Of a stretch of 52,214 nt of DNA, positions 6,907 to 34,674 are shown piece by piece. Position 1 is the stretch's first letter. Every line of letters begins with the position of its first letter. A program made the position numbers and the translations under genes. The notes beneath the pieces were generated by a model. The model did no database searches. It worked only from the letters and a program-made list of their open reading frames with translations, and had not been told where the DNA came from. This DNA is from Bacillales bacterium UBA7057 (lineage in GTDB: Bacteria > Bacillota_I > Bacilli_A > RF39 > UBA660): positions 1,330 through 53,543 of the forward strand of contig DLAC01000001.1 of the NCBI GenBank assembly GCA_002493865.1. The letters run 5' to 3'.

Positions 6907-6965
6907 AACAATCCCTCCTATTTTCAGTCTATGATTATTATGCTAAATTTAGAATATTTTTAAAC

Positions 6966-6996
6966 AGAAAAAGAAAAAAGAGCAACAAGCTCTTTA
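6966..6996 (-). terminator. Rho-independent terminator downstream of ORF 7002-7298
   Basis: The minus strand reads AAAGAGCTTGTTGCTCTTT followed by TTTCTTTTT. Confidence 0.6.
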
Positions 6997-7001
6997 TATT
7001 T

Positions 7002-7298
7002 CTAACGAACAGGTACACCAAATTCAGGAAAAACCTTTTGTTGAGTTTTCTGATTTTGATAAGCCTTTACTTTTACTGGTACATGATTCTCATACAATAA
7101 ACTACATCCACCGACCTGACCATAGCCTGAATGACTAACTGGGTGATATCCAGGTGGACAACTAACAAATGAAGTTTTTTCATGATCACTAGAAAAAATA
7201 AATTTTTTACTATTTTGATAATCAATCAAAATATAATGCTTACCAGGTCGAAGGACAACCTCTCCTAAATAAATGTTTTTTGCTTTTCTCCCAAACAT
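7002..7298 (-). CDS. Hypothetical protein (98 aa)
   Basis: Start refined to MFGRKAKNIYLGEVV after RBS AAGGGGGT; the ORF track extends to 7325. No recognisable motif. Confidence 0.45.
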   Translation of the reverse strand: MFGRKAKNIYLGEVVLRPGKHYILIDYQNSKKFIFSSDHEKTSFVSCPPGYHPVSHSGYGQVGGCSLLYENHVPVKVKAYQNQKTQQKVFPEFGVPVR

Positions 7299-7352
7299 AT
7301 AATTTACCCCCTTGAGTTGACACATATAATAACATAAAATAGGAAAAATGTA

Positions 7353-7383
7353 AAGAAAAAGGATAGAACCGAAGTCCTATCCC
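7353..7383 (-). terminator. Rho-independent terminator downstream of the YfcC-like transporter gene
   Basis: The minus strand reads GGATAGGACTTCGGTTCTATCC followed by TTTTTCTTT. Confidence 0.6.
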
Positions 7384-7400
7384 TTCACTCTCTTATTATT

Positions 7401-8981
7401 TTATAAAGCTAAGATAATTAAGAAAATAACAACTAAAATAGCTAATAATGTTAGGAATAATTTCCAAATAAATTTTAACCATTGTTTATAAGAAACATTT
7501 AAATAAGAAAGTGTACCCATTAAGATAAAGCTTGTTGGTGCTACTAATAAAGCTAATCCATAAATAGATTGGAAAATAACAGAAATTAATGGGTATAGAC
7601 TTGAATCAGTAATTACACTTTGAACATATGGTAATGTACTTTGTGTAACATAAGTTAAATCAACATTGAAGAATGATGATAATAATGATACAAGCGTCAT
7701 AGTTACAACATTGATACCTGAAGTAAGATCAAGCAAGAACTTCGCAATGGTTAATTGGAATGGATGATAAGTAACAACAACTAATACTACATAAGTTAAT
7801 AAGATAACTACAGCAGGTTCAATTGCTCTTTTAAATCCATCACAAATTCCGTCGATAAAGTCATCCCATTTTACACGATATACAAGTGCTAAAATAATAG
7901 TAGCAATCATAATGAGTGCAGGAATTTCAATACCTAAACTCCATTGACCAAATGCTTGAACTTGTCCTAATAATTTTCCAAAAATCTCAAATCCAAAGAT
8001 TTCATAAGTAGTTACAGCCTCTGTTGCATCTTGGAACCAAGAAATTTCGAATAAACCATTCCAATCAAAAACTGAAATTGCCATACAAATGAGTACAAGA
8101 TCAAAGATAATGGCAAATGGCCAAATATTTGCTTTCTTTTCTGATTTTGATTTAACTACCAAAGTTTCAGAATTCTCTTTTGCCATAGCTGCACTATTTT
8201 TTGCTGGACGTCCTCTCTTACCAGTTGATTTGGTAGTAGATTTAGTAGATTTCTTAGTAGTTTTAGATTTTGCTGGTTGTTTCGCAACCTTTTTAGATTC
8301 TTTTACTACTACTTTTTCTGGTTCTACCATTGCTTCTTCTTTTGGTGTTTCTTTGACTTCAACTGTAGAATTTTTTGTCTTTTTGCTATAAAGAACAACT
8401 TGTGCAATTAGTAATACGATGAAGATGACTAAGATAATTACTTTTGAAATCATCTCATCAAAAGCAGTCAATCCTAACATTTGATTCATATAACTAGTTG
8501 TCATCGTTCCAAGTGTTGTACCTGCAATACCAGCAACTGTTGATCCAACGGTAACTGTTGCAGCCACTAAACGGTTGTATCCCATTTTGATAACGACATC
8601 AATCACAAATGGAAATACAAAGATAATAGGAATTGAAATTCCAGTAACTGAAACAATTACAGAGATTAGAATGATGATAGCGCTTAGGAAAAGATATTCC
8701 ATTCCCTTAAAACCATCTACAATCCTTTCAACTAATTGATGATAGGCAGAAGTTCTGTAAGCGACTCCATAGAAAATACCACAAGTAAGTACAAATAATA
8801 AGATACTTCCAAAATATTGTAGTGCAATTCCTGGATAAGCAAATAGGTCAAACAATCCTGCTTGGATTCTCTCCCCTTCTACAAGAGTATCTGTGAATTG
8901 TGTACTAGGAAATATCCAAGAACAAATTGCAACAGCAACAATCGTAAAGAGAAGAACTTTTAAAATACTATGTTTCTTCAT
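7401..8981 (-). CDS. YfcC/DcuC-type polytopic membrane transporter with a lysine-rich AT-hook-like insertion
   Basis: Start refined to MKKHSILKVLLF after RBS GGGAGGG; the ORF track extends to 9095. About 10 or more hydrophobic helices. A central ~85-aa hydrophilic K/S/T-rich loop contains GKRGRPAK. Confidence 0.6.
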   Translation of the reverse strand: MKKHSILKVLLFTIVAVAICSWIFPSTQFTDTLVEGERIQAGLFDLFAYPGIALQYFGSILLFVLTCGIFYGVAYRTSAYHQLVERIVDGFKGMEYLFLSAIIILISVIVSVTGISIPIIFVFPFVIDVVIKMGYNRLVAATVTVGSTVAGIAGTTLGTMTTSYMNQMLGLTAFDEMISKVIILVIFIVLLIAQVVLYSKKTKNSTVEVKETPKEEAMVEPEKVVVKESKKVAKQPAKSKTTKKSTKSTTKSTGKRGRPAKNSAAMAKENSETLVVKSKSEKKANIWPFAIIFDLVLICMAISVFDWNGLFEISWFQDATEAVTTYEIFGFEIFGKLLGQVQAFGQWSLGIEIPALIMIATIILALVYRVKWDDFIDGICDGFKRAIEPAVVILLTYVVLVVVTYHPFQLTIAKFLLDLTSGINVVTMTLVSLLSSFFNVDLTYVTQSTLPYVQSVITDSSLYPLISVIFQSIYGLALLVAPTSFILMGTLSYLNVSYKQWLKFIWKLFLTLLAILVVIFLIILAL

Positions 8982-9142
8982 ATTAACCCTCCCATTATTA
9001 ATTATAACAATATTTACTGTAAAATCAATATATTTAGGTGAAAGTTTGGTGAAATTTACCAAAGAATCAATTAAAAAAGAAAAAGAAAAAGTCAAAATTC
9101 ATCTAAAAAAATCCAACATTTCTGCTGAATTTTCTCTAAAAA

Positions 9143-10630
9143 TTATTCTTTATCTGTATCCGCTGAAAGTGGTCTCATCAGTGGGAACATTACAACATCA
9201 CGGACACTTTCACTTCCAGTTAATAGCTGAACGATACGGTCAATTCCCATCCCCCAACCTGAAATTGGTGGCATTCCATACTCCATCGCACCAATATAGT
9301 CATAATCCATATCCATGGCTTCTTCATCTCCTGCTGCCTTTAAGTTAGCCTGCTCTAAAAGTCGACGTTCCTGTTCTTGAGGATCTACAAGTTCTGAATA
9401 TCCATTGACGATTTCGGCTCCATTAATGACTAATTGGAAGCGATCACTGATTTCAGGACGATCATCATTACTTCTTGCAAGTGGAGAAAGACTGGTTGGA
9501 TGTTCTGTTAAATAAACAGGCCCCAACATATGAGGACGTGCCACTTTCTTATATAAAACATCTACTAAGTTTCCAAATCCAAGATTCTCAAGTGGTGTTT
9601 CACTTTCAACTTCTATCTTCTCTTCTAAGATTTTAGAAAGTAACTTCTCTTTTGTATTATAAACATCAATATCAATATTGGCATATTTGATTAATAATTC
9701 TCTAAAAGTTACTCTTCCCCAATCTCCACTTAAATCAATTTCTTTATCACCAAAGGTAATCTTTAAGGTACCAAAAATATTCATAATAATTGTCTGAAGC
9801 ATATGTTGGATTAACTTCATATTATCTTCGTAATTAAAGTATGCTTGGTATCCCTCTACCATCGTGAAGTCTTGTAAGTGAGAGGCATCCATTCCTTCAT
9901 TTCTAAAACAACGTGCAACTTCATATACCTTAGGAATTCCCGCAACCACTGCTCTTTTTAAATAAGTTTCAGGAGCAATTCTTAAATATACATCTAAATC
10001 CAGTGCATTATGATGAGATTTAAATGGTCTAGCAGTCGCCCCACTTGCCTTATTATTTAAAATTGGTGTTTCTATTTCCATATATCCCAAGTTATCTAAA
10101 TAATTTCTTAACTCTCTAATAAATTTTACACGAACCATAAAACGATTTCTAGTTTCCTGATTCATAATTAAATCCACATATCTTTGACGGTAACATGCCT
10201 CTAAGTCTGTTAATCCATGGAACTTCTCAGGAAGTGGTTTTAGCGCTTTTCCAAGGAATTCAAAGTGATCTGCACGTAATGTTTTTTCTCCCGTATGTGT
10301 CGTAAAAATTTCTCCTACTGCACCAATAAAATCCCCAACATCAATATTGGATTTGAAGAATTCATAGTTTTCTTCTCCTACTAAATCAATTTTAATTGAA
10401 ATCTGAAGATCTCCTTCAATATCTCTAATTTTTAGAAAACTCATCTTCCCCATTTTTCTCATGAAAACAATACGTCCTGCAACCGAAACATCCTTCGTTT
10501 CATCCTCTAATAGACTCGCTTCTTTTAAAGAATGTGTAACCTCAAAACGTTCTGGATATGGATTACAGAATTCACGTATCTTATTTATTTTATCTCTACG
10601 AACTAATTCCTGTTCTGAAAATTCTCTCAT
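9143..10630 (-). CDS. lysS: Lysine--tRNA ligase (class II)
   Basis: N-terminal OB anticodon-binding domain. Class II motifs (FRNEG, GMGIDRIVQLL). 495 aa. Conserved dusB-lysS neighbourhood. Confidence 0.95.
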   Translation of the reverse strand: MREFSEQELVRRDKINKIREFCNPYPERFEVTHSLKEASLLEDETKDVSVAGRIVFMRKMGKMSFLKIRDIEGDLQISIKIDLVGEENYEFFKSNIDVGDFIGAVGEIFTTHTGEKTLRADHFEFLGKALKPLPEKFHGLTDLEACYRQRYVDLIMNQETRNRFMVRVKFIRELRNYLDNLGYMEIETPILNNKASGATARPFKSHHNALDLDVYLRIAPETYLKRAVVAGIPKVYEVARCFRNEGMDASHLQDFTMVEGYQAYFNYEDNMKLIQHMLQTIIMNIFGTLKITFGDKEIDLSGDWGRVTFRELLIKYANIDIDVYNTKEKLLSKILEEKIEVESETPLENLGFGNLVDVLYKKVARPHMLGPVYLTEHPTSLSPLARSNDDRPEISDRFQLVINGAEIVNGYSELVDPQEQERRLLEQANLKAAGDEEAMDMDYDYIGAMEYGMPPISGWGMGIDRIVQLLTGSESVRDVVMFPLMRPLSADTDKE

Positions 10631-10645
10631 ATTTTTCTTCTCCTT

Positions 10646-11605
10646 TTAATCTACCATGATTACTTTTGTTTTTGCGAGACGGTCATGAAGACCCCTTCCA
10701 GTATTAGAGTACATCACCATAAAGATAGAAACAATAATTAATACCGTTTGTATCCCTTGTACTGTAAAACTAGCGTAATAATAATACTCTCTTCCCATAA
10801 ATAAAACCAAAGCGATAATTAACATTTTACTAATAATAGATGGAATAATAAAAGATCTAAGAATATATTGATTCATACTTACTTCTCCATCATCCTCGGA
10901 AACAACCCGAATCCTTAGTAACCTTTTTCCAATCGTCTGCCCCTTATTATAGAATTGAAATACAATAAAATAAAGAATGAGTACTACAATCTCCATAATC
11001 ATAGGTAAAACATTATTATAATCGATATCATAAACGATTTCTGCAGTTTTATTTACATATTCATCAGAATCCATATTTCCCTCTAAGAAAGAAGATTGAA
11101 GTTTTTGATATTCTGTTAAATAAGCTGTATAGTTTTTGTTTTCTGGAACTACGCTAATAAATAGAGTAGAAAGAACGGTAACAATGATAATATCAATTAG
11201 ATATGCTAAAACTCTTGGAAAGAAATAAGCCTTTGGACGACTAGTTACTTTTTCTTCGATTGTTTTTGATTCTAATAAAACTTCCGCTACTTCTGGTTTT
11301 GCTTCCTCTTTTACTTCCGGTTCTAGCTGTTTTCCTTTTTTCTTTTTTACCTGTTTTTCTTCTGTTTCTTTTTTTGCTTTTATTTCTTTCGATGTCACTT
11401 TTTTTGAAGAATTTTTACTCTTTGACTTTGTAGTCTTAGTAGTAGTACTCTTTTTATTTTGAGTCTCTTTCTTTTTCTTTGCAGTAGATGGCTTCTCTTT
11501 TTTAGAAGAAGCCTTTTCTACAAACTCTCCCTCTACTGTTTTTCCTTTTTTTAAACGATTCGTTTCTTTCTTTGAATCTTCTTTATTTGTTGCCATGAAA
11601 TTCAC
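10646..11605 (-). CDS. RDD-family membrane protein with a ~125-aa lysine-rich N-terminal tail
   Basis: The C-terminal half matches the RDD pattern (FPRVLAYLIDIIIV ... GQTIGKRLLRIRVV ... RGLHDRLAKTKVI) with 3 TM helices. The N-terminus is low-complexity K/S/T/E. Confidence 0.65.
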   Translation of the reverse strand: MNFMATNKEDSKKETNRLKKGKTVEGEFVEKASSKKEKPSTAKKKKETQNKKSTTTKTTKSKSKNSSKKVTSKEIKAKKETEEKQVKKKKGKQLEPEVKEEAKPEVAEVLLESKTIEEKVTSRPKAYFFPRVLAYLIDIIIVTVLSTLFISVVPENKNYTAYLTEYQKLQSSFLEGNMDSDEYVNKTAEIVYDIDYNNVLPMIMEIVVLILYFIVFQFYNKGQTIGKRLLRIRVVSEDDGEVSMNQYILRSFIIPSIISKMLIIALVLFMGREYYYYASFTVQGIQTVLIIVSIFMVMYSNTGRGLHDRLAKTKVIMVD

Positions 11606-12583
11606 CTAACTTTCTAACCATTTCTTATATTCGTTCAATGTATCAATTATATCAGAAATATGCGTCTGAAGGAATATTTTATTCTTAATTTCATTCGATT
11701 TTGGAAGCCCTTTTAAATACCATGCAATATGACTTCGAATTTCTAAAACGGCTAGATGTTCATCTTTTAGTTGATAAAGATTATCTAAATGTTTTAAACA
11801 GAAATCAATTTTTTCACTTGGCGTTGGTTCTTCTAGCTTCTTTCCTGTTTCTAAGTAAGTATTAATTTCTTTAATTAACCAAGGGTGACCTAGTACTCCA
11901 CGTCCAATCATAATTGCATCACATCCTGTTTCATCCAGCATTTTTTTGGCAAGTTCTGGAGTTGTAATATCTCCATTTCCAATGACGGGAATAGAAACAG
12001 AATCCTTTACTTTCCTAATGATAGACCAATCTGCTTTTCCAGAGTATCCCTGACTACGAGTTCTTGGATGTACACAAATCGCACTAGCACCTGCTTCTTC
12101 ACATATTTTAGCTACCTCAACTGCATTGATATGTTCATGATCCCAACCACTACGAATTTTAACTGTAACTGGAATAGGAACGGAAGCTACAACACTCGAT
12201 ACAATTTCACGTATTTTTTCTGGATTTTTTAAAAGTGCTGCACCAGCCTGTGATTTGACTGCTACTTTAGGAACGGGGCACCCCATATTGATGTCGATTA
12301 TATCCGGATGCATGTGTTCATAAACGTACTTTGCAGCAACAACAAAAGATTCTTTATCACTTCCAAAAATTTGTTGTGCAATCGGTCTTTCTTCTTCTTC
12401 CATATAAAGCATATCTATGGTTTTCTTACTATTATAAAATAAGGCTTTATCGCTCACCATTTCTGCATAGATTAAACCACAACCCATTTCTTTTACAATC
12501 TTACGAAAACTAGAATTCCCAATTCCAGCCATCGGTGCTAAAACAGTTTGATTTTTGATTTCGACATTTCCGATTTTCCACAT
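11606..12583 (-). CDS. dusB: tRNA-dihydrouridine synthase
   Basis: Dus family blocks [24 protein letters not shown]. 325 aa. Confidence 0.9.
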
Positions 12584-12679: not shown

Positions 12680-13390
12680 TTATTTTAATACTTTTTGTTT
12701 CAAATATGCAGAAACTTCCCATTCTTTCCCACCTAAAAAAGTATGACCATTCAAAAGTTCATCGCGAAACAAACAATAAAATTTTGGGCCTACTGGTAAA
12801 TCAAGAATTGGATGATTTTGATCAGTCAGAAAGTTCTCTAAAGAAATCGTCGAAATAACTACAGGATTAAATAAACGATGATAAGTTTCTTCTGAAATGA
12901 CTAAATTAGAGGTATAATCCATACAAACATGGTCTTTTTTAATAAAACTATGCACAATTCTAGTAGAATCAAACCCGTCTAAATCACGGCCATCTACATA
13001 AGCAGTTACTAAAGTTCCACCACAATCTGGAAATACTCGCATACATCCAGAATGACATCGAATAAATCTTCTTTTTAAACTTAATAAATCTAAGGAAACT
13101 CTTAAATTTCGAATTCTATTTTTTTTGAGCAAATCATCTGATAAGCGAAAGAATTCTATTGTTTCATCTTTCAAAGAAACTTGAAATGCCTTATGACTAC
13201 ATTTTTTTAATCGAAAACCTTCAATGAAACGACATAACCACATTTCAAAATTATACGATGTAAATGTATAAAGAGCATCCACAAATGGATTTAAAGGTCT
13301 CCCAATTTCCTTTGAAAACAAAAATATGGAGTTATTTCCTTTATGAATTCCATACACATTATAATCAGTATTTACAGCATTCTTTTTCAT
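12680..13390 (-). CDS. Unknown-family protein C2 (236 aa), paralog of 14531-15244
   Basis: Start refined to MKKNAVNTDYNVYGIHKGN after RBS GAGGTGAT; the ORF-track extension to 13477 would overlap the radical SAM gene. Shares YGIH.GN near the N-terminus and VHS.I...DYTSNL.ISE..Y..L..P ... P.G.KFYCLFR.ELLNGHTFLGG.EWEVS at the C-terminus with C1. Confidence 0.7.
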   Translation of the reverse strand: MKKNAVNTDYNVYGIHKGNNSIFLFSKEIGRPLNPFVDALYTFTSYNFEMWLCRFIEGFRLKKCSHKAFQVSLKDETIEFFRLSDDLLKKNRIRNLRVSLDLLSLKRRFIRCHSGCMRVFPDCGGTLVTAYVDGRDLDGFDSTRIVHSFIKKDHVCMDYTSNLVISEETYHRLFNPVVISTISLENFLTDQNHPILDLPVGPKFYCLFRDELLNGHTFLGGKEWEVSAYLKQKVLK

Positions 13391-13418
13391 ATCTCCAATC
13401 ACCTCAAGCGAATCTACT

Positions 13419-14534
13419 TTAATTAATATTAGATGGAATTTTCTCATACTGTAAAAATTTCGAATAAACTCTCGCATGTTCTTGAATGGTTTCTTTCGAA
13501 AGTTGATCTAAAGAATGAGATTTTACAAAGGAAGAATCTTGATATCGGTTAACTTCTACAAATTCCAAAAATGGTTTTATTTCCTTTAATACCCGCATAG
13601 TTGTTTTTACATCTTCCATGGTTTCTGTTGGATATCCTGCAATAATATGTGTATCTAATTTTTTGATAGAATCTTGATTAATAAATCGATAAAAGTCTAA
13701 AAACTCCTCAATTGTATATCCTTTATCCATAAGTCCAAGGATTCGATTATCCCCAGATTCTAGAGAACCACAAATTGTTTTTACTTTACTAGACCTCTTT
13801 AATGAATATTTAAAATCATGATGAATGGCATCCCTAAAAGCAAATCCAACAAGTATTACATTTTTTATATGTTCCTTTTCTTCTATATAGTCAATGAAAG
13901 AAGGTAATAAATATTCTTGATGTGTATCTAAACCAAATTGACTGATATTCATTCCCCTAATATAAACCGTTTCAATCCCCTTTTGATCCATAGTATCCAC
14001 CAATGTTTTTGCGCCAGAAATATCCATACTAACTAATGGAATTTTTTGAAAAGTTGTCTTACAAAAAGCACATTGATTTAAACAACCACTAGAAATATAT
14101 AGATTGGCCATATGATCATCCAAAGCATCTCTAGATACAAAACCGAATTCATAAAATTCATCATCAAACTTTTCTTTCAATAAATCACTCAATAACTCAT
14201 TTATTTTAGTACTTGGAATTATATGATCAATATGAGTATTTAAATAGTTACGAATATTAGTAAATTGACTAGGATCTAAAAAGTCACGAGCTAAACAACC
14301 GGTTAAATAGGTTTTAGCCTCCGGCTTCTTTTTTTCTAAAATAAAATCTATATAACCAATCATCATATAAATTCTGTCCTTGTAGCATGAACAAGTAGAA
14401 GCAAAAATAATGACATCTGCTTCCTCTGGTTGCGTAACAAATTCATACCCCTCAATTCTCTCTAATTCACACATAATTTCAGAGTATTGATAGTTTACAC
14501 CACAACTAAAATTTTTACCCATAAATATTTTCAT
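13419..14534 (-). CDS. Radical SAM enzyme, methylthiotransferase (MiaB/RimO)-like, without a TRAM domain
   Basis: CxxxCxxC radical SAM motif in SSGCLNQCAFCKT. The N-terminal UPF0004-like domain has three spaced Cys (NFSCGVN, ASTCSC, LTGCLA). The protein ends about 40 aa after the radical SAM core, leaving no room for a TRAM domain. The start overlaps the C1 stop (ATGA). Confidence 0.8.
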   Translation of the reverse strand: MKIFMGKNFSCGVNYQYSEIMCELERIEGYEFVTQPEEADVIIFASTCSCYKDRIYMMIGYIDFILEKKKPEAKTYLTGCLARDFLDPSQFTNIRNYLNTHIDHIIPSTKINELLSDLLKEKFDDEFYEFGFVSRDALDDHMANLYISSGCLNQCAFCKTTFQKIPLVSMDISGAKTLVDTMDQKGIETVYIRGMNISQFGLDTHQEYLLPSFIDYIEEKEHIKNVILVGFAFRDAIHHDFKYSLKRSSKVKTICGSLESGDNRILGLMDKGYTIEEFLDFYRFINQDSIKKLDTHIIAGYPTETMEDVKTTMRVLKEIKPFLEFVEVNRYQDSSFVKSHSLDQLSKETIQEHARVYSKFLQYEKIPSNIN

Positions 14535-15244
14535 TGTTTGTAACCCCCTAATGTTTTTTGTTTCACACCATCAGAAACTTCCCACTCTTCTCCACCAAGA
14601 AAGGTATGTCCATTCAAAAGTTCATTTCTAAATAAACAATAAAATTTTAAACCCATTGGAAGAGAAACTATAGGAGACTTTCTATCCGATAAATATTCTT
14701 CATGAGACACTTGATTTAAAACAGTAGGATGTACCAAATCCTCATAATCTTTTTCTGAAATCCCTAAATTACTTGTATAGTCAATGATCTTATTCTTTCT
14801 TCGAATATAACTATGTACTACTCGAACCTTTCCACTGGAGTCATCTACATAGGAAGTTTCTAGAATTCCTCCAAGCGAATTAAAAAAATAGAAACTTCTA
14901 AAATGACACTCTCCCTTTCGTTTGTCATGAGTTAGCAATTCTAACTTGTAAGGGATTAATTTGATGGGGTGATTACCAGTTAGTACATCAGAAAACCTAG
15001 AAAACTCTAGAAATTTTTCTCCAAACCAAAGTCTATATTTATCATGATTTTCTCTTTGTAATTTAAAACCCATTTTGTTATATTTCATATGACGAAAAGG
15101 ATTACAAGAAGTATAGGCACGAATCGCACCCATTCTAGTATCAAATTCTATATCCTTAGGCTCTGCAAAAAACATTTGCACATTTCCCATATGAATTCCA
15201 TAAGAGTTATATTTAATATTTTTATCCCTAATTGTAAAATTCAC
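14531..15244 (-). CDS. Unknown-family protein C1 (237 aa), paralog of 12680-13390
   Basis: Likely GTG start (VNFTIRDKNIKYNSYGIHMGN) after RBS AGGGGTGG; the ORF-track TTG start is at 15283. Long collinear similarity to C2, strongest in the C-terminal 90 aa. Confidence 0.7.
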   Translation of the reverse strand: MNFTIRDKNIKYNSYGIHMGNVQMFFAEPKDIEFDTRMGAIRAYTSCNPFRHMKYNKMGFKLQRENHDKYRLWFGEKFLEFSRFSDVLTGNHPIKLIPYKLELLTHDKRKGECHFRSFYFFNSLGGILETSYVDDSSGKVRVVHSYIRRKNKIIDYTSNLGISEKDYEDLVHPTVLNQVSHEEYLSDRKSPIVSLPMGLKFYCLFRNELLNGHTFLGGEEWEVSDGVKQKTLGGYKQ

Positions 15245-15294
15245 AGTACCACCCCTGATTCTATTTGAAAAAAGAAATACCAAAATGATATTTC

Positions 15295-15744
15295 TTAGCG
15301 TTCATATTTGAAGTTTCTCATATAAACTACTTGATCTGGATCCCTTCCCATATCACGAAGTTGCTTATCAAGTTCTTCTTTTTTCATCGGAACATCTGGT
15401 TCTGGATGATTATAGCTTTCAACAAGCATAGAAATAAACCCGTTCTTTGTATCACGAAATTCTTCATCTGATTGAACGTCTTGCATGCTTGCATTCACAA
15501 CATCTAGAAATTGTTGTACTCTGTTTTGACGCATCGCATAAATTAATAATTGACTGCTATGCTCCATGAAAAATGAAAAAATTGCTACATCCATCATTTG
15601 ATCTGGATTTCTTTTGACAAGACGCTCAAAATAAGCCATCTCTTCATAAGTAATCACTAACTTTCCATAATAATGCCACCAATGTTTTAACAATTTTGTC
15701 TTTTCATCTTCTGAATATTGATCCCATTCTTTGATTTCCATCAT
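15295..15744 (-). CDS. Unknown-family protein A (149 aa)
   Basis: MEIKEWDQYSEDEKTKLLKHWWHYYGKLV. RBS AAAGGGGAAC. Paralog of the interrupted gene at 16499-16924. No recognisable motif. Confidence 0.65.
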   Translation of the reverse strand: MMEIKEWDQYSEDEKTKLLKHWWHYYGKLVITYEEMAYFERLVKRNPDQMMDVAIFSFFMEHSSQLLIYAMRQNRVQQFLDVVNASMQDVQSDEEFRDTKNGFISMLVESYNHPEPDVPMKKEELDKQLRDMGRDPDQVVYMRNFKYER

Positions 15745-15763
15745 TTTCTAGTTCCCCTTTCAA

Positions 15764-16483
15764 CTAAAAGCTTCCTTTTTTCTTTTGAACTTCCGAATTT
15801 TCTTCTAACACTTCTTCCCCATCTTCTAGTGCTGGATCCTCTTTAATAAGGGCCAGTTCCTCTAATACATCCCCTAGCTCATCTTTAAAAAATTGAATAG
15901 CTGCATCCATATCTTGATTAGAGAATCTTTTAACTTCTTCCATTTGAATACAATCTAACACTTCAGAATAATAAGAAAGAATTTTAGATTTTCCTAAAGT
16001 TTCTATTCGTATCTGATTTAAAAACACATGTTCTTTATATTCACGAATATAAGATATTAGTTGATCAAAATTCGTAGTTGCTTGAATTGGGAACATCCCA
16101 TTGATTGCTTTCTCAATTTTTTCTTTGTTAGTATCTTCCACTTGTGGTGATACTAATTCACGAATTACACCCATATCTCCATCCATGAGTCGGTCAATGA
16201 GAGAAACTAATTTTGGTAGTTGATAACTAACATATTCCCATTGATAAATAGGAATTGTTTGGTTGGAAGACGGTATTGATTCATTATATAAAAATCTCTT
16301 TTTTACATCGGTAATTGTTTCTCCCTCTTTTGGCATTACTTCTTTAGGCCCTGCACAAGAAATCTTAGTTGCCTCTATACATCTTTCTGAAACAGTTTCT
16401 CGAATTCTTTGTAATTTTACAAAGTCAATGGTCACATCGTATTTAACTGTTTCATTTCCTTCACTTACGTAATAAATCATCAT
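15764..16483 (-). CDS. Unknown-family acidic protein B (239 aa)
   Basis: RBS AGAGGGGAC. Strongly acidic C-terminal tail (EDPALEDGEEVLEENSE). No recognisable motif. Lies 15 nt downstream of the preceding gene. Confidence 0.6.
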   Translation of the reverse strand: MMIYYVSEGNETVKYDVTIDFVKLQRIRETVSERCIEATKISCAGPKEVMPKEGETITDVKKRFLYNESIPSSNQTIPIYQWEYVSYQLPKLVSLIDRLMDGDMGVIRELVSPQVEDTNKEKIEKAINGMFPIQATTNFDQLISYIREYKEHVFLNQIRIETLGKSKILSYYSEVLDCIQMEEVKRFSNQDMDAAIQFFKDELGDVLEELALIKEDPALEDGEEVLEENSEVQKKKGSF

Positions 16484-16498
16484 AGTCCCCTCTTTCTT

Positions 16499-16924
16499 CT
16501 AAGAAAAATAATGTTTTGTTATTTCTCTCCTAACTTTTATTCCTAGTTCTACGGCGCCTGTTGTAATTTCTTGCTCATCAGTAGTTGCCATAGTAATATT
16601 ACATAATCCAACAAGTGTAGTAATAATTTGTTTTTTTAGAAATTGATGGTCTTCATCATCACTCAAACTAGGTACATCTGCTAGCAACTTATCCAAGGAT
16701 CCATTTCGCATAACTTGAATCATTGTCTCAGCATTATGACCCAACGTTGTTAAGATAACAATAAAATCCAGAATTAAATCAATATCTCTTTCTAATAAAT
16801 GATTAAAATATTCCCTATCTTCTTTCGTAAGAATATCCTGATTTCTGTTAGAATAAGCAAATCAAAAATTTAATAAAATTCTCTTTTCAGAAAAAGAATA
16901 CTGATCCCAAGGCTTAATTTCCAT
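16499..16924 (-). pseudogene. Paralog A' of protein A, interrupted by a single in-frame TGA (codon 21, nt 16864-16862)
   Basis: ATG at 16924 after RBS GAAGGAGAGGG gives MEIKPWDQYSFSEKRILLNF-TGA-FAYSNRNQDILTKEDREYFNHLLERD. This continues in the same frame into track ORF 16499-16744. The total of 426 nt is a multiple of 3. The TGA aligns with W21 of paralog A (LLKHWWHYYG). Confidence 0.7.
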
Positions 16925-16994: not shown

Positions 16995-17018
16995 AAAAAA
17001 AAGAGGTTAATCCTCTTT
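16995..17018 (-). terminator. Rho-independent terminator of ftsH
   Basis: The minus strand reads AAAGAGGATTAACCTCTTTTTTTT. The hairpin includes the ftsH stop codon. Confidence 0.65.
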
Positions 17019-18962
17019 GATTGCCTCTTCTAATTCTTTTTTGGTCATCTTTGTATAACCTTTGATTCCTTTTTCTTTTGCTATTGCTTTTAATTTTTCA
17101 AGTTCTTGATCCACTTCTTTTTCAAGTTCTTCTGGCATCTTACCCGTTTCTACTAAAGAATCAATTTGTTCCTTTGTCAAGGTTTCATACTCTAATAAAG
17201 CATCCGCAATTCTTTTTACAAGATCTTTGTTATCTGTCAAAATTTTCTTTGCTGCTTGGTAACATGAATCAATAATCTTACGAACTTCCTTATCAATTTC
17301 ATGCGCAATCTCATTGGAGAAGTTACGACTCTTATTATAATCTCTACCTAAGAATACGCCACCTTCTTGTTGTTCTAATTGAACAGGTCCCAAATCACTC
17401 ATACCATATTCAGTAACCATCGCACGTGCAATTTTCGTGGCTTTTTCAAAGTCATTATGTGCACCCGTTGTTACCTCTTTAAATTTGATTTCTTCAGAAA
17501 CACGTCCACCTAACAAACCAGTAATTCTTTGTAGTAATTCGGTTTTTGTAGATAAATATGTTTCTTCACTAGGCATCATTAAGGTATAACCACCTGCTTG
17601 ACCTCTTGGAATAATCGTAATTTTTTGAACATCATCTGCATTTGGAAGTTTAATACCAAGAACCGCATGCCCTGCTTCATGGTAAGCAACCACTTCTTTT
17701 TCATGGTCGTTATATTTTCTAGAAACTTTGGCAGGACCACCAATGACACGGTCTGTTGCCTCATCAATTTCACTCATTGTAATTGCATTTTTATTTCTAC
17801 GTACTGCTAGAAGAGCAGCTTCATTTAATAGATTTTCTAAGGCAGCTCCACTAAATCCTGGAGTTCTTTTTGCCAAGAAAGATAATTCTACTGATTTATC
17901 TAGAACTTTATCCTTTGCATGAACTTTTAATATTTCTTCACGCTCACGAACATCTGGTAAATCAACAGTTACCTGACGATCAAATCTTCCTGGACGAAGA
18001 AGTGCTGGGTCTAAGACATCTGCACGGTTTGTGGCTGCGATAATGATAATTCCTTCATTTGCCCCAAATCCATCCATTTCTGTAAGTAATTGGTTTAGTG
18101 TTTGTTCCCTTTCATCATGTCCACCACCAAGACCTGTACCACGTTGTCTACCAACGGCATCAATTTCATCAATAAAGATTAAGCAAGGTGCTGTGTGTTT
18201 TGCTTGTTTAAACATATCACGAACACGACTAGCTCCAACACCGACAAATAATTCTACAAAATCAGAACCACTAATATAGTAGAATGGAACATTGGCTTCT
18301 CCTGCAACTGCTTTGGCTAGTAATGTTTTACCAGTCCCTGGAGGTCCTACTAAAAGAACACCCTTTGGAATTCTAGCTCCTAATTTTGTAAATCGTTTAG
18401 GATTTTTCAAGAAGTCAATTAATTCACTTACCTCCTCTTTCTCCTCTTTTAATCCAGCTACATCCTTAAATGTTACTTTATTATTATCATTACTTAGTCT
18501 TGCTCTACTCTTACCGAAATCCATAGATTTATTTGCGCCACCTACTTGTTTCGTTAAGAAGAAGAACCCTGCTCCAACAATAATTACAATTGGTAAAATA
18601 TTCATAACGATTAATAACAAAGAACTAGATTCAGGATCCGCTTTGGTATTAATTTCGATATCTCCACTTTGAGTACTTAAAATTTCACTCATGACAGCTT
18701 CACTTAAAGGAACACGTACAAAGAAACTTTCATTCTCTTTATATCCCTCTAGTTTACCAGTAATTTCATAAGTAACTGCTCTTTCTTTTGGAGTAATTGT
18801 TAATTCTGTTACTTTCTCTTCATCTAATAGAGTAATTAATTTATCATAACTTAATGCATTTACTTTACGATTCATAACGTTAAATGCGTAATAAGCTCCA
18901 AATACAAATAATATTAAAAATAAGTAAGGTAATAACCCTCGTTTTAAACTATTTTTGTTCAT
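17007..18962 (-). CDS. ftsH: ATP-dependent zinc metalloprotease FtsH
   Basis: Two N-terminal TM helices. AAA+ Walker A GPPGTGKT and Walker B IIFIDEID. Zinc site HEAGHA. 651 aa. Confidence 0.97.
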
Positions 18963-18975
18963 CCTCTTCCTCCTT

Positions 18976-20331
18976 TTAATAGTATTTTACTATTATATCA
19001 TAATTCTCATTTTTTTGTTTATTAAATTTACTTTTCTTAATTCCTGGAATCCATACAACGGTATCAGTCGCATCCACAACGATTGGCCAAAGTTCTCTTT
19101 CCTGCATCGGAATCTTGGAATCAATAAAGATATCTTTGACTTTTTTATGCCCATTGGTTCCCTTTAAGGCAATCTTATCTCCATATTTTCTAGTACGAAT
19201 ATAAAGAGGTAAGCAAATCTCTTCACTATTCAGTCTACAAACATCATTCCCATTCGTGGATTCTTCTTCTACTTTTTCAATGGTTTTTCCATTCGGCAAA
19301 TTTGCATAATCAAAGAGTTCAATTTCATAAGTATCAATGGTATTACTCTGCCTTTCAAAAGTAAGTAAGTCATACGCTCTCACTACTTTTACTTGATCTG
19401 GTAAAAAGATAAAACTATTTTTCTTTTTGGAATGAATCAGTTTTTGAATAAGTTCTACATGCCGATCATGAATCACCATCAAATCATCTTGATAAATTGT
19501 AGCCAAAATAGAATTTAATACTTTTTCCTGAAGTACCTCGTCGATTTCTAAGAATTTAGAAATATAAAATGATTTTTGATCTGGCTGATAAAGCTTTTTA
19601 TATTCTTTTTTCGCCTGACCATCGATATAATTATTATATTTGATTAAAGTTTTACTAAATTTTAGAAACTTTTCATGATATTTTGGATCTTCTTCTTTCA
19701 AAAAAGGTAATACTTTTTTTCGATAACGGTTTCTAGTATAAGTTTCCTTTTCATTCGAAGAATCAATCACATAAGGTATTTGATGTTCTAAATCAAACTG
19801 CTTGATTTCTTCTTTGGTAACCCCAATGAGTGGACGAACTAAAGTGTAATTATCCTGTTTGACTACTTGCTGAAATCCCGCATAACCTACCAAGCTAGAG
19901 CCACGCACAAGCCTCATTAAAATGGTCTCGACTAAATCATCTCCATGATGAGCAGTCATTAAATAGTTCGCTCCATATTTTTGAACAATTCCCTCAAAGT
20001 AATGATAACGAATGGTACGGGCTTCATTATGAAAATTATCATCTCCATAGTTCTCAATAATCATAGACTCAAAGGCGATATTTTTCTTTTTACACCAGTC
20101 CTCCAAGAATTCCTTTTCTTCAAAGCTTTCTCTTCGAATATTATGATTGACATGACAACATACAAGAGAAAAATGAATTCTTTCTTCTAAATCTTTTAAA
20201 ATACTAAGAAGTGCCATAGAATCCGGTCCCCCAGAACAACCTACTACAATAATGTCTTCTTTTTTTAAACAAAGTTCTTTTTTTAAATATTGATATACAT
20301 GATTCATAATTTCACCTGTTTCTAAATCCAT
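18976..20331 (-). CDS. tilS: tRNA(Ile)-lysidine synthase
   Basis: PP-loop motif SGGPDS. TilS C-terminal domain. Conserved tilS-ftsH adjacency; no hprT lies between them here. Confidence 0.9.
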   Translation of the reverse strand: MDLETGEIMNHVYQYLKKELCLKKEDIIVVGCSGGPDSMALLSILKDLEERIHFSLVCCHVNHNIRRESFEEKEFLEDWCKKKNIAFESMIIENYGDDNFHNEARTIRYHYFEGIVQKYGANYLMTAHHGDDLVETILMRLVRGSSLVGYAGFQQVVKQDNYTLVRPLIGVTKEEIKQFDLEHQIPYVIDSSNEKETYTRNRYRKKVLPFLKEEDPKYHEKFLKFSKTLIKYNNYIDGQAKKEYKKLYQPDQKSFYISKFLEIDEVLQEKVLNSILATIYQDDLMVIHDRHVELIQKLIHSKKKNSFIFLPDQVKVVRAYDLLTFERQSNTIDTYEIELFDYANLPNGKTIEKVEEESTNGNDVCRLNSEEICLPLYIRTRKYGDKIALKGTNGHKKVKDIFIDSKIPMQERELWPIVVDATDTVVWIPGIKKSKFNKQKNENYDIIVKYY

Positions 20332-20375: not shown

Positions 20376-20406
20376 TAGAAAAGAAGTGCATATATTTTAC
20401 ACTTCT
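20376..20406 (-). terminator. Rho-independent terminator of the LRR-like protein gene
   Basis: The minus strand reads AGAAGTGTAAAATATATGCACTTCT followed by TTTCTAT. The stem overlaps the stop codon. Confidence 0.5.
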
Positions 20407-22861
20407 ACCATCGAAATACAATTTTTACAATGAGGAATCCAATAAAGAAAAGGAAATTTAGTAAGAATAAAATACCAAGAATAGAAACACCATGATTCTT
20501 TGGAACTGACGTTAAAGAAGGAATAGAGGATTTTTGATACAAGTCTTCTATGGTAAGATATAATGATTCTAAATAAGCATATTGAAAATCCTTGGGAACA
20601 ATTAAACCATCACTACTCTCTAAATTAGTTAAATATAAGGTACCTCCAATGAACTTTGATAATCCCAAATTCTCTGCAGAAAGTAAATTTCCTAAGAATA
20701 CATCTCCACCAATCCAAGGGGATAATTGAAACGAAGAAGCATGAATCATTCCATCTAGTGAGCAGTCTCTTCCAATAAAATCAGGAAATTCTACATTTTC
20801 TAGATGAGTCACACTTTCTAAGCCTAGGCTTCCCCCAAGATAAGAAGGAAACTTTTGATTTTTAGCAGTAATTAAGTTCTCGAGATTTAAGTCCCCACTG
20901 ATATGTTCTGGAAACTTAAAGTTTTCAATATAGGTTAGACTTTTTAAAATCAAATCTCCTTCCAGGGATTCTGGTAAAATTAAATCATCGGTACTTACTA
21001 AACTACTTAAATCTAGTGTACCATTTAATTGTTTTGGAAGTTGTAATCCTCCAGCATATTTTAAAGATTTTAATCCTAGACCCCCTCCAAGAAATTTAGG
21101 TAAGGTTAACTCATTCGCACTCTCTAGCCCATTCATCCAAAGATTTCCATGAAGGATTGTAGGAAGCCTCAATCCATGTGCACTCTTTAATCCATTGAGC
21201 CAAAGTTCACCAAAAATCTCATCCGGTAGCTCTAGTCCCTCTATATCCAGAAGACCATTAAGTCCTAAATCCCCTCCAAGACTAGAAGGCAGTTCTATCC
21301 CTTTCACACATTTCAAATGACTGAGCCATAAATCTCCTTTCACTGTTTCAGGTAACTGAAATCCACCCTTGGGAACTCGTTCTAATGAATTTAACCTTAC
21401 GGAACCAAGAACGGTCTTTGTGAATTGAACATCTTTGATGTCTGTTACATTTTCTAAATTCAAATTTCCATAAATATATTCAGGAAACTCTACTTTTTCT
21501 AGATGAGAAAGCCCTGATAGATTTAATCCTCCTCCAATAATAAATCTAGGAAGGGAAATCCCTTCTAAAGTATGAAGAAACGATAAATCTAAATGACCAT
21601 AAAAGTATTTGACCTGTTTTCCATTTAAAACATCGGAGGTATCACTCGATATTTCGTCTTCTCTACAATGAAATATTTCCATTAAATCCTGTTTGTAATC
21701 TCTTGTTTTTAGGATTTCGCTGATTCTTGGATCACTCCCATAGCCAAATCCCTCAATCTTATTATCAATCTGGTAAAGAAACCGAATTTCATCTAAAGTA
21801 AGTTCCGATGTTTGAACCTTTGTATAAATACTGGTCAACTTTTTCATATCAGAGACTTTCTTTTTATACCTCTTTCCATCTGGAAATTCTTTTAATTTTT
21901 CTTCTAACGCAGGTTGCATTTCTGGTTCTATCTCTTGTCTTGGCGCAATTCCACGAATTTCTTCAATCTTATTTTTTCCATTCATCCAAATCGCAATTCT
22001 TGGATTTTTATAAAGTCCTTCGGAGTCTTTCGTATAATATACATAGAAATCTCCTTTTTGAAGTTCCCCTTTGGCCGTTTCAATTCCTGCGGTACACCAG
22101 TTCGTTCCACTTCCTTCAATTCCCTTGACTAATATATTTGGATCACTTCCCTGATCATATTTAATCCAAATACCTTCATTCATGTCCTTCCTTGATAATT
22201 CAACCTTCCGTAACATATATCCATACAGTTTTGAAAAACTACCATTTTCTAATAATCTCTGTAAGACAGGTTCCTCTACTGGTTCTCCATGGAGTTCATC
22301 CTGTAAATTTTGATATACGAGTTCTAAAGCCTCCTTATCTAAATGTACAAATAAATTTGTAGTAGAAGTCGATCTTTTATTAAATTGAGACTTTTCATGA
22401 TCATAGGTTCCAAGTTTAAGCATTCCTTGAAAAGCATAATACTTAAACCATTCTGGATAAGGACATTCTTCACTAAAGAAATAATCTAGCCAAACATCCA
22501 AGGACTTTTTTTGATCTCCAATGACTGCTGAAACTAAGTCCTTCTTTTCTTCTTCTGTAAATTCAATATGACCATATCCTCGATCAAGAGCCATTAATTT
22601 TTTCTTGTCGTAAAAGGACTCTTTGATGTTTTCTTCTTTTATAATATATTTTTGGTAATAGAGTTCTTTCAGTAATTGAATTCCATGAAGATCTCTACTC
22701 CTAGCCAAATTTTCTACTCTATTTAACCGATCTAAATATTTGCGCACCTTTTCATTTTTATCATCTTTTGAAGTTGCAGTATGCATCACGGAATCACTCA
22801 TATGTAAATCTTGATATAATCGGTTTAAGAAACTTTCCCCATGATAATGATAATCTCCCAT
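20405..22861 (-). CDS. Large tail-anchored protein: unknown ~420-aa N-terminal domain, ~16 x 21-aa LRR-like repeats, C-terminal TM helix
   Basis: No signal peptide (MGDYHYHGESFLNRLYQDL). Repeat unit resembles L.LP..l.G.L.L..L.s...., for example LELPDEIFGELWLNGLKSAHG / LRLPTILHGNLWMNGLESANE / LTLPKFLGGGLGLKSLKYAGG. The last 28 aa (GVSILGILFLLNFLFFIGFLIVKIVFRW) are hydrophobic. Confidence 0.75.
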   Translation of the reverse strand: MGDYHYHGESFLNRLYQDLHMSDSVMHTATSKDDKNEKVRKYLDRLNRVENLARSRDLHGIQLLKELYYQKYIIKEENIKESFYDKKKLMALDRGYGHIEFTEEEKKDLVSAVIGDQKKSLDVWLDYFFSEECPYPEWFKYYAFQGMLKLGTYDHEKSQFNKRSTSTTNLFVHLDKEALELVYQNLQDELHGEPVEEPVLQRLLENGSFSKLYGYMLRKVELSRKDMNEGIWIKYDQGSDPNILVKGIEGSGTNWCTAGIETAKGELQKGDFYVYYTKDSEGLYKNPRIAIWMNGKNKIEEIRGIAPRQEIEPEMQPALEEKLKEFPDGKRYKKKVSDMKKLTSIYTKVQTSELTLDEIRFLYQIDNKIEGFGYGSDPRISEILKTRDYKQDLMEIFHCREDEISSDTSDVLNGKQVKYFYGHLDLSFLHTLEGISLPRFIIGGGLNLSGLSHLEKVEFPEYIYGNLNLENVTDIKDVQFTKTVLGSVRLNSLERVPKGGFQLPETVKGDLWLSHLKCVKGIELPSSLGGDLGLNGLLDIEGLELPDEIFGELWLNGLKSAHGLRLPTILHGNLWMNGLESANELTLPKFLGGGLGLKSLKYAGGLQLPKQLNGTLDLSSLVSTDDLILPESLEGDLILKSLTYIENFKFPEHISGDLNLENLITAKNQKFPSYLGGSLGLESVTHLENVEFPDFIGRDCSLDGMIHASSFQLSPWIGGDVFLGNLLSAENLGLSKFIGGTLYLTNLESSDGLIVPKDFQYAYLESLYLTIEDLYQKSSIPSLTSVPKNHGVSILGILFLLNFLFFIGFLIVKIVFRW
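20567..21601 (-). repeat. Degenerate 63-nt coding tandem repeats (about 16 units) encoding the 21-aa LRR-like array
   Basis: The period was derived from the protein repeats (residues ~421-765). The units are diverged at nucleotide level. Confidence 0.7.
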
Positions 22862-33747: not shown

Positions 33748-34674
33748 ATGCCACTATATATATCTCATGCCATCATGGGAAACAGTTTATATGAAGAAGC
33801 AAACAAAGATGAAAAATTATTTAAATTACCCATCAATGTGCATTCATTAAGAGGGTACTCACAGGGGATGGATTTTGCTACATTTTCAAACCCAAATGCT
33901 CACAGTAATAAAACTCAAGAATTTTTATTAACACTCATTCAATATATAAAAGAAAATGATTTAACAGAGGATAGCGAAGTCTTAGCATTTCTTTATGGTC
34001 ATATCAGTCACTATTTCTTTGATACAAAAGCCCATCCTTTGATTTATTATATAGAACAGGGATGTCAAAAAGTAGGAATGTTTACTCCACATAATCTTGT
34101 GGAAGGTTATATAGATACTTATTTGATTAGAAATATTATGCATAAAGAACGAGTACAAATAAACGAACATTTTTTTAATCAAATAGACTTAAAAAATCCA
34201 GTAATCATAAAACTCATCAAAGATGTTCATTATAAAACCTATCAAGATAAAAATATCATGAAATCCACCTATTTAACGTTATTCCTTTCTAGTTTGATTG
34301 AGATTGTATCAAAAAGTCCTATGATGACAGAAAATTTTCTTATTTGGTTATCCTCATTTCAAAAATTTTTAGAAGTAAATCAATTAACTAAGGAAGAAAT
34401 TGTGAACAGTAATAATGATACTTGGAAAGTTCCTACAACAGGAGAAAAGCATCAAGAAAGCTTTTTACAAATATATCAAGATGCTCTTAGTACAACATTA
34501 GAAGCAATGAATGAAGTAAATAAATATTTATACAATGTAAAGTCAATCTCCTCGTTAGAAAAAGTATTCCCAGATATTTCTTACGATACAGGTTGCCCTC
34601 TTTCTCTAGGATTAGAAATGAAACATATTAGAGGAATGGATAATAACACGAAAGCTTACCAATTTAAAAAGTAA
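33748..34674 (+). CDS. Putative zinc-dependent phospholipase C-family / metal-dependent hydrolase
   Basis: The only plus-strand gene. RBS AAAGGGGGA. His-rich blocks (ISHAIMG, LYGHISHYFFDTKAHPLIYY, HNLVEGYID) resemble uncharacterised Zn_dep_PLPC-family proteins. Recognition by eye only. Confidence 0.4.
   Translation: MPLYISHAIMGNSLYEEANKDEKLFKLPINVHSLRGYSQGMDFATFSNPNAHSNKTQEFLLTLIQYIKENDLTEDSEVLAFLYGHISHYFFDTKAHPLIYYIEQGCQKVGMFTPHNLVEGYIDTYLIRNIMHKERVQINEHFFNQIDLKNPVIIKLIKDVHYKTYQDKNIMKSTYLTLFLSSLIEIVSKSPMMTENFLIWLSSFQKFLEVNQLTKEEIVNSNNDTWKVPTTGEKHQESFLQIYQDALSTTLEAMNEVNKYLYNVKSISSLEKVFPDISYDTGCPLSLGLEMKHIRGMDNNTKAYQFKK

Follow-up and report, generated by a model that had tools for sequence, protein, structure and literature searches.

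Two paralogous, putatively transglutaminase-like proteins encoded beside a TRAM-less methylthiotransferase-type enzyme in Bacillales bacterium UBA7057

Paralogous genes on either side of a radical-SAM enzyme gene

The stretch of DNA analysed here (the window) comprises 52,214 nucleotides (nt) of Bacillales bacterium UBA7057 (GTDB lineage Bacteria; Bacillota_I; Bacilli_A; RF39; UBA660), corresponding to positions 1,330 to 53,543 of the forward strand of contig DLAC01000001.1 in assembly GCA_002493865.1. Between ftsH and dus it carries two paralogous genes of an unnamed protein family, C1 and C2, which lie on either side of a gene for a radical-SAM enzyme of the methylthiotransferase type ("the enzyme"). 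Every gene in this part of the window is on the minus strand. The three genes, with positions counted from the first letter of the window, are as follows.

14531-15244, minus strand: C1, 237 amino acids (aa), basic (pI 9.0), in the list of open reading frames (ORFs), paralogous to C2
13419-14534, minus strand: radical-SAM enzyme of the MiaB/RimO methylthiotransferase type, 371 aa
12680-13390, minus strand: C2, 236 aa, basic (pI 8.9), paralog of C1

A first-pass annotation, made from the letters alone, had described C1 and C2 as collinear paralogs, and both the ORFs and the relationship are borne out: BLASTP aligned the two proteins collinearly with 95/229 identities (41%), 61% positives, two small gaps, and an E value of 3e-57. 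The sequence features that it had listed are all present, i.e., YGIH.GN (residues 15 to 21 of C1 and 13 to 19 of C2), the Cys-containing segments GECHFRSF in C1 and IRCHSGCMRVF in C2, and the common C-terminal motif VHS.I...DYTSNL...KFYCLFR.ELLNGHTFLGG.EWEVS. The similarity is far beyond chance and is not one of low-complexity sequence. The stronger divergence of the N-terminal halves also holds, as identity in a sliding 30-residue window is 13 to 41% over the first ∼110 columns, 42 to 50% in the middle, and 70 to 83% over the last ∼50 columns. Synonymous differences are numerous in the conserved C terminus (TTA/TTG, AGA/CGC, GGA/GGT, ACC/ACT, CTT/TTA, GGA/GGG, and GAG/GAA); they rule out recent gene conversion as its cause and show that it is maintained by purifying selection. 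The two paralogs are old, and each remains under purifying selection.

The C1 start codon is a GTG, seven bases 3' of the Shine-Dalgarno sequence AGGGGTGG. The C1 stop codon overlaps the enzyme start codon as ATGA, and the C2 start lies 28 nt after the enzyme stop. C1 is translationally coupled to the enzyme through the ATGA overlap, as had been proposed, and the genes of the cluster are evidently co-transcribed.

The C family and its putative transglutaminase-like core

The annotation had not recognised the family, and neither C1 nor C2 found a match in Pfam (at E ≤ 1), NCBIfam, PADLOC, PHROGs, or PDB sequences. A word-indexed search of 5.8 billion proteins yielded 13 relatives only; when a profile was run exhaustively over 1.84 billion representative sequences, 382 reached E ≤ 1e-3, of which 60 reached E ≤ 1e-10, and most were 210 to 270 aa long. 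The C family is unnamed and consists of cytoplasmic proteins of uncultured, mostly gut-derived Bacilli. Phage and plasmid collections gave no match in a tblastn search with a distant member, IMG/VR scans for the C and enzyme families gave generic radical-SAM fragments only, and a metagenome scan with query A3 returned a single short contig.

Conservation across the family was read from an alignment of 100 diverse members. In C1 numbering, H144 is invariant, and R109, C113, T130, D155, T157, N159, Y167, and D187 are conserved in ≥90% of the sequences. The family motif is G-x-C-H-x2-S ... [IV]VTGY[VI] ... HSW[IV]E ... [IV]-x-D-[YFW]-T-x-N-L. The conserved Cys, His, and Asp thus stand, in this order, within G-x-C, H-x-W-x-E, and D-x-T, which we take to be the three-motif Cys / His-x-Trp-x-Glu / Asp-x-Thr signature of transglutaminase-like cysteine enzymes. 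All three residues are present in both paralogs, with codons at 14906-14908 (C113), 14813-14815 (H144), and 14780-14782 (D155) in C1 and at 13055-13057 (C112), 12950-12952 (H147), and 12917-12919 (D158) in C2. In the comparison of C1 with the transglutaminase-like superfamily, the spacings from Cys to His and from His to Asp are 31 and 11 residues. C1 can be divided as follows.

Residues ∼1-105: N-terminal alpha/beta module
Residues ∼106-210: putative transglutaminase-like core, containing C113, H144, and D155
Residues 211-237: conserved C-terminal tail, predicted to be disordered

An AlphaFold2 model of C1, built on the 100-sequence alignment, has a mean predicted local distance difference test score (pLDDT) of 87.8 and a predicted template modelling score (pTM) of 0.83. 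In the model, C113 N-caps a helix (residues 113 to 124), H144 lies on a strand (141 to 149), and D155 ends another (152 to 155), and the NGHTF tail (211 to 237) has low confidence. The Cys-His-Asp order and, in the model, the Cys at a helix N cap, the His and Asp on the next strands, and the pattern of one helix and then three strands are points of likeness to the transglutaminase-like superfamily (PF04473, DUF553; PF01841, Transglut_core), which was reportedly described by Makarova, Aravind, and Koonin in 1999. In contrast to the known members of that superfamily, the C family has an N-terminal module of ∼105 residues and an NGHTF tail that no model matches.

When the 100 members were scanned singly against Pfam, the two most recurrent families were DUF553 ("Transglutaminase-like domain"), matched by seven members with a best E value of 6.3e-5, and Transglut_core, matched by four; Transglut_core3 was matched by none. 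One member, P0035, exceeds the DUF553 gathering score (20.9 versus 20.5 bits) over residues 71 to 173, and its Cys114, His144, and Asp159 fall inside the aligned stretch. NCBIfam gave only scattered noise with the same 100 members (≤3 members per family). According to PMC10318531, DUF553 belongs to the seven families that originally made up the transglutaminase-like papain superfamily.

From the conserved residues, the model, and the recurrent Pfam matches, the C family probably represents a new and strongly diverged branch of the transglutaminase-like superfamily and not a new fold. Since the core would have a divergent papain-type (transglutaminase-like) fold with a Cys-His-Asp triad, C1 and C2 are most likely thiol enzymes that act on an amide or (iso)peptide bond, i.e., a peptidase, amidase, or transamidase. 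The annotation had set assignment to a known domain family with an established role as the outcome that would overturn it; the probable assignment reached here is at superfamily level only, and no established role follows from it. The earlier division into a conserved "docking or catalytic" module and a variable one stands in part: the part from about residue 105 onward is a putative catalytic core, and the N-terminal ∼105 residues are variable. The variable N-terminal region would be a substrate recognition module.

The TRAM-less enzyme and the ftsH-dus interval

The enzyme resembles MiaB, MtaB, and RimO in its domains and cofactor ligands. It matches UPF0004 (PF00919; 1.3e-9) and Radical_SAM (PF04055; 1e-8) in Pfam, carries C11, C48, and C80 in UPF0004 (auxiliary [4Fe-4S] cluster) and the CxxxCxxC motif C151-x3-C155-x2-C158 (radical-SAM cluster), and aligns through residues 4 to 320 with MiaB (PDB 7mjv) and RimO (PDB 4jc0). 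All six Cys residues are invariant in 35 aligned homologs. In contrast to MiaB, MtaB, and RimO, it is ∼70 residues shorter, falls far under every NCBIfam equivalog cut-off (MtaB, 112 versus 357; MiaB, 84 versus 355; RimO, 80 versus 357), and is paired in this clade with a putatively transglutaminase-like protein. It also lacks the C-terminal TRAM domain: 100+ residues of 7mjv and 4jc0 are left over, the alignment to TIGR00089, its top NCBIfam match (132.7 bits versus a cut-off of 251), ends at model position 351 of 429, and the protein ends where TRAM would begin. Its homologs form 63 clusters (39 to 99% identity; 216 to 391 aa, with full-length sequences of 353 to 391 aa) that are likewise too short for TRAM, and those that are named come from "Bacilli bacterium" metagenome-assembled genomes. 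The enzyme is evidently an intact two-cluster methylthiotransferase without TRAM, and it therefore needs another way to hold its substrate. To our knowledge, all described methylthiotransferase subgroups carry a TRAM domain, and no paper describing a TRAM-less methylthiotransferase was found in the literature searched. The TRAM-less enzyme forms a family of its own and is possibly the most interesting element of the locus.

The interval between ftsH and dus was compared with related loci (L001 to L006, L014, L019, and L020), in which the gene orders are as follows; the U genes are described below.

Window: ftsH-(split U140)-U239-U149-C1-enzyme-C2-dus
L001: ftsH-U140-U239-U149-C1-enzyme-dus
L003: ftsH-U149-C1-enzyme-dus
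L004: ftsH-U140-U239-U149-enzyme-C1like-dus
L002 and L005: ftsH-enzyme-C-dus
L014 (short contig): enzyme-C2-dus
L019 and L020: ftsH-C-dus, no enzyme; C has the NGHTF tail
L006: unrelated cargo and a truncated C remnant

The enzyme directly adjoins a C-family gene in 6/6 related ftsH-dus loci that hold it, and the order varies: C-enzyme in L001 and L003 and enzyme-C in L002, L004, L005, and L014. The 4-nt overlap between a C-type gene and the enzyme recurs in L003. The symmetric C1-enzyme-C2 arrangement, to which the annotation had drawn attention, is seen in full only in the window and is not a conserved feature, as the relatives have C-enzyme, enzyme-C, or C alone, and five related loci hold a single copy. 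In a neighbor-joining tree, the C1 orthologs group with P0014, C2 sits apart on a long branch, and the L002/L005 sequences have a branch of their own; all three branches fall inside one tail-bearing clade. The NGHTF tail is restricted to this clade, which holds every enzyme-linked member. The tail was considered as a marker of enzyme presence and rejected, as P0014 has a nearly identical tail and no adjacent enzyme, i.e., the tail does not track the enzyme.

Synonymous divergence (dS) between the window and related genomes is the same in the cluster and its flanks (0.7 to 1.3); the cluster is therefore vertically inherited and not mobile, and horizontal transfer is ruled out. The ratio of nonsynonymous to synonymous divergence (dN/dS) of the cluster (12680-16924) is 5 to 10 times that of the flanks at 9143-12583 and 17007-20331 (0.2 to 0.5 versus 0.02 to 0.07). 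Among housekeeping genes the ratio is 0.02 to 0.07 in comparisons with the three closest loci and reaches 0.15 with L002; it is 0.19 to 0.27 for C1, 0.25 to 0.48 for the U genes, and 0.25 to 0.39 for the enzyme, the last about ten times that of neighbouring housekeeping genes. C2 has a value of 0.14 against its 92%-identical ortholog in L014. The cluster is functional and weakly constrained.

The remaining genes and signals of the cluster, all upstream of C1, are as follows.

15295-15744, minus strand: U149, acidic, 149 aa, no family match, directly upstream of C1
15764-16483, minus strand: U239, acidic, 239 aa, no family match
16499-16924, minus strand: split first gene of the cluster (U140 position), paralog of U149, with an in-frame TGA at 16862-16864
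16980-16952, minus strand: promoter-like site, TTGACT-17-TAATAT with TG, after the ftsH hairpin (consensus match only)
17018-17000, minus strand: terminator-like hairpin of ftsH (consensus match only)

In L001 and L003, U149 likewise precedes the C1-type gene; in L004 it precedes the enzyme gene. U239 is found in L001 and L004 and absent from L002, L003, and L005; it has one weak PADLOC match (E = 5.5e-4), and its candidacy as a hidden third C paralog was ruled out, as the family hidden Markov model (HMM) does not match its L001 and L004 orthologs. The first gene reads from an ATG at 16924 through MEIKPWDQYSFSEKRILLNF to the TGA and then continues in frame into "U81" (16499-16744), which is its 3' part. 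In L001, where the ortholog is intact (140 aa), the TGA position is occupied by Trp. This ortholog is 29% identical to U149 (E = 8e-14), which makes the two genes a second pair of paralogs in the cluster. Because TGA is a genuine stop elsewhere (e.g., at the end of C1), the internal TGA is a nonsense mutation or sequencing error and not recoding. No terminator-like site was found within the cluster downstream of the C1 5' region or between C2 and dus; the sole other hairpin in the terminator scan lies inside the C1 coding sequence (15133-15113). An Rfam scan of the cluster found nothing.

Several features of the related loci and the wider window may be recorded here. In L004, the C1-like gene downstream of the enzyme (8001-8659) consists of two frames overlapping at ∼8141-8153, a frameshift or assembly error; an intact 231-aa relative with a similar identity to C1 (P0006) occurs in another assembly. 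L006 is a more distant relative, and its ftsH-dus cargo (4826-8372) comprises proteins of 371 and 286 aa, the latter with three Ltp-like repeats (EYLDxMAFS...LxEQLxYEGF), a double helix-turn-helix (HTH) regulator, a small membrane protein, and a 111-aa C-family remnant without the catalytic Cys. In the window, the RDD-family gene (10646-11605, minus strand) is also fast-evolving (dN/dS, 0.20 to 0.37), and its product and a DcuC-type transporter (7401-9095, minus strand) have long Lys/Ser/Thr-rich low-complexity inserts. An 818-aa ORF between tilS and divIC/yabP-type genes (20405-22861, minus strand) has no Pfam match at E ≤ 1e-5, and an ORF of equal length occupies the same position in L003. 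Long plus-strand ORFs are very few in the 52-kb window, and a single one (33748-34674) is not contained in a longer minus-strand ORF; it encodes a Zn-dependent phospholipase C-like protein (PF00882, 3e-7).

Possible function of the C proteins and the enzyme

We consider the best explanation as a whole, with a probability of about 0.5, to be that C1 and C2 are old paralogs and transglutaminase-like thiol enzymes with the TRAM-less enzyme as their operon partner. In one clade, the C-family gene of the ftsH-dus interval would have acquired the MiaB/RimO-type enzyme as a partner, and the two proteins may act on the same macromolecular substrate. The C protein could recruit or process this substrate for the enzyme or act on its product, and two diverged C copies could give two specificities. 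Functional coupling, for which the genomic link is confined to one lineage, is plausible; the evidence for it comprises the ATGA overlap, the 6/6 adjacency, the lack of a terminator-like site, and the retention of six Cys residues without TRAM. That the two proteins act together, with C replacing TRAM in recruitment or in processing substrate or product, is a tentative proposal that we regard as possible but somewhat doubtful. It is rather unlikely that the C proteins are dedicated partner subunits (adaptors or substrate) of the enzyme in a new protein or peptide methylthiolation system with two targets.

Several observations weigh against this explanation. First, C1 and C2 themselves match no transglutaminase model, and the link is transitive, via distant members near threshold. 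Second, no significant structural neighbour emerged from Foldseek, for which two models were used with PDB (best E value, 0.24) and one with BFVD; the papain-like proteins LapG, USP14, staphopain, VASH1, and Josephin appeared only among matches at E values of ∼1, and profile searches against PDB sequences were empty. Third, several loci hold one of the two families but not the other. Distant C-family members are found alone between ligA and hrcA (ligA-C-hrcA) or beside an ABC transporter gene (ABC-C-299aa), and the C genes of L019 and L020 have the NGHTF tail but no enzyme. Conversely, enzyme homologs of 41 to 53% identity occupy other surroundings: one adjoins recA, another lies in a prophage-like/RHS region, and a third is flanked by ORFs of 48 and 57 aa (L021, L022, and L024). 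An HMM search found no C-family gene near the recA and prophage-like/RHS loci, and the gene list of the locus with the small ORFs contains none; the three loci share no common enzyme neighbour and none resembling the C tail or the U proteins. Finally, the ftsH-dus interval holds few genes, and adjacency there is weak evidence.

The enzyme and the C proteins may instead be unrelated neighbours, i.e., stand-alone C enzymes and an independent modifier (e.g., of tRNA or rRNA) that are only co-transcribed. This possibility, which is the main alternative and, like joint action, less likely than not, accommodates the separate occurrence of the two families, the variable content of the interval (in L006, a truncated C remnant accompanied by genes for HTH and Ltp-like repeat proteins), and vertical inheritance at the same dS as the flanks, and the flanking genes tilS, dus, and lysS are themselves tRNA-related. 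It is less easily reconciled with ATGA overlap coupling in two genomes, adjacency kept through at least two changes of gene order, and the loss of the usual substrate-binding domain from the enzyme.

Alternatively, C1 and C2 could be substrates of the enzyme, methylthiolated on a residue of the tail (NGHTFLGGxEWEVS) much as RimO modifies Asp88 of S12, a precedent for protein modification by enzymes of this class (PMC10702137). The tail is ∼80% identical between paralogs whose overall identity is 41% and is held by selection, has low pLDDT and is probably disordered or exposed, and is confined to the clade with all enzyme-linked members. Nevertheless, we consider this improbable: P0014 has an almost identical tail without the enzyme, the tail is most diverged in the P0009-P0012 group, whose genes adjoin that of the enzyme, and enzyme homologs elsewhere lack a neighbouring gene with the motif.

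The C proteins can also be compared with better-known thiol enzymes. The lasso peptide B protein McjB (Transglut_core3; MEROPS C96) is a transglutaminase-like protease similar in size to C1 and C2 (PMC10318531). McjB proteins are cytoplasmic, ∼210 to 240 aa long, carry a recognition module ahead of a Cys-His-Asp protease domain, and work together with a peptide-modifying enzyme; the C proteins would have a comparable layout, but their partner is a radical-SAM methylthiotransferase. A pathway resembling those for ribosomally synthesized and post-translationally modified peptides would have the C proteins as leader peptidases (the role of McjB in lasso peptide maturation), the enzyme as maturase, and a small acidic protein as precursor, and both the small acidic genes upstream in the same operon and the 5- to 10-fold-faster nonsynonymous change of the cluster would suit it. 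Such a pathway is highly unlikely, as there is no Transglut_core3 match and neither a transporter or exporter, a (lasso) cyclase, an immunity gene, a precursor, nor a small conserved ORF was found beside the pair in the cluster; the upstream genes are absent from L002 and L005, which retain the enzyme-C pair, and C is mostly a lone chromosomal gene. The spore coat transglutaminase Tgl of Bacillus subtilis is ∼240 aa long and has a thiol active site with Cys/Glu dyads, not Cys-His-Asp. C1 and C2 are similar in size and putative thiol active site, and the host has sporulation-type neighbour genes (YabG, SpoVG, and YabP), but they match neither the Tgl Pfam family nor any PDB chain (Tgl structures were not checked by entry).

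The first-pass annotation had also raised the question whether invariant residues in GIH (His), FYCLF (Cys), and NGHTF (His) form a metal site; a new metal-binding or docking module of this kind is very improbable. These residues are ≥90% conserved inside a close subfamily of 12 sequences but not in the wider family, in which GIH is replaced by GVN, GYN, or GIN and FYCLF by KMYLLFR or KPYVVFR and the sequences end before NGHTF; NGHTF is predicted to be disordered, and the residues conserved across the whole family form the Cys-His-Asp catalytic pattern. An anti-phage defence or toxin module is scarcely credible: elevated dN/dS, the variable content of the interval, and one enzyme homolog next to an RHS protein and near holin, endolysin, Bro-N, and RhuM genes would fit it, but C1, C2, and the enzyme have no PADLOC match, the phage, plasmid, and IMG/VR collections hold no relatives, and dS equal to that of the flanks gives no sign of horizontal turnover.

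No paper on the pairing of C and enzyme genes was found in the literature searched. Methylthiotransferases have so far been assigned two classes of substrate, tRNA A37 and Asp88 of ribosomal protein S12 (PMC10702137). If the C protein and the enzyme do work together, methylthiolation chemistry would extend to a new class of substrates, recruited in a new way. If they are independent, an unnamed family with ∼380 representatives in uncultured Bacilli gains a testable catalytic triad and a superfamily assignment. At least 63 sequence clusters, all too short for TRAM, make up the enzyme family; both Fe-S sites are strictly conserved in the 35 members tested, and in one clade the family is translationally coupled to the C family.

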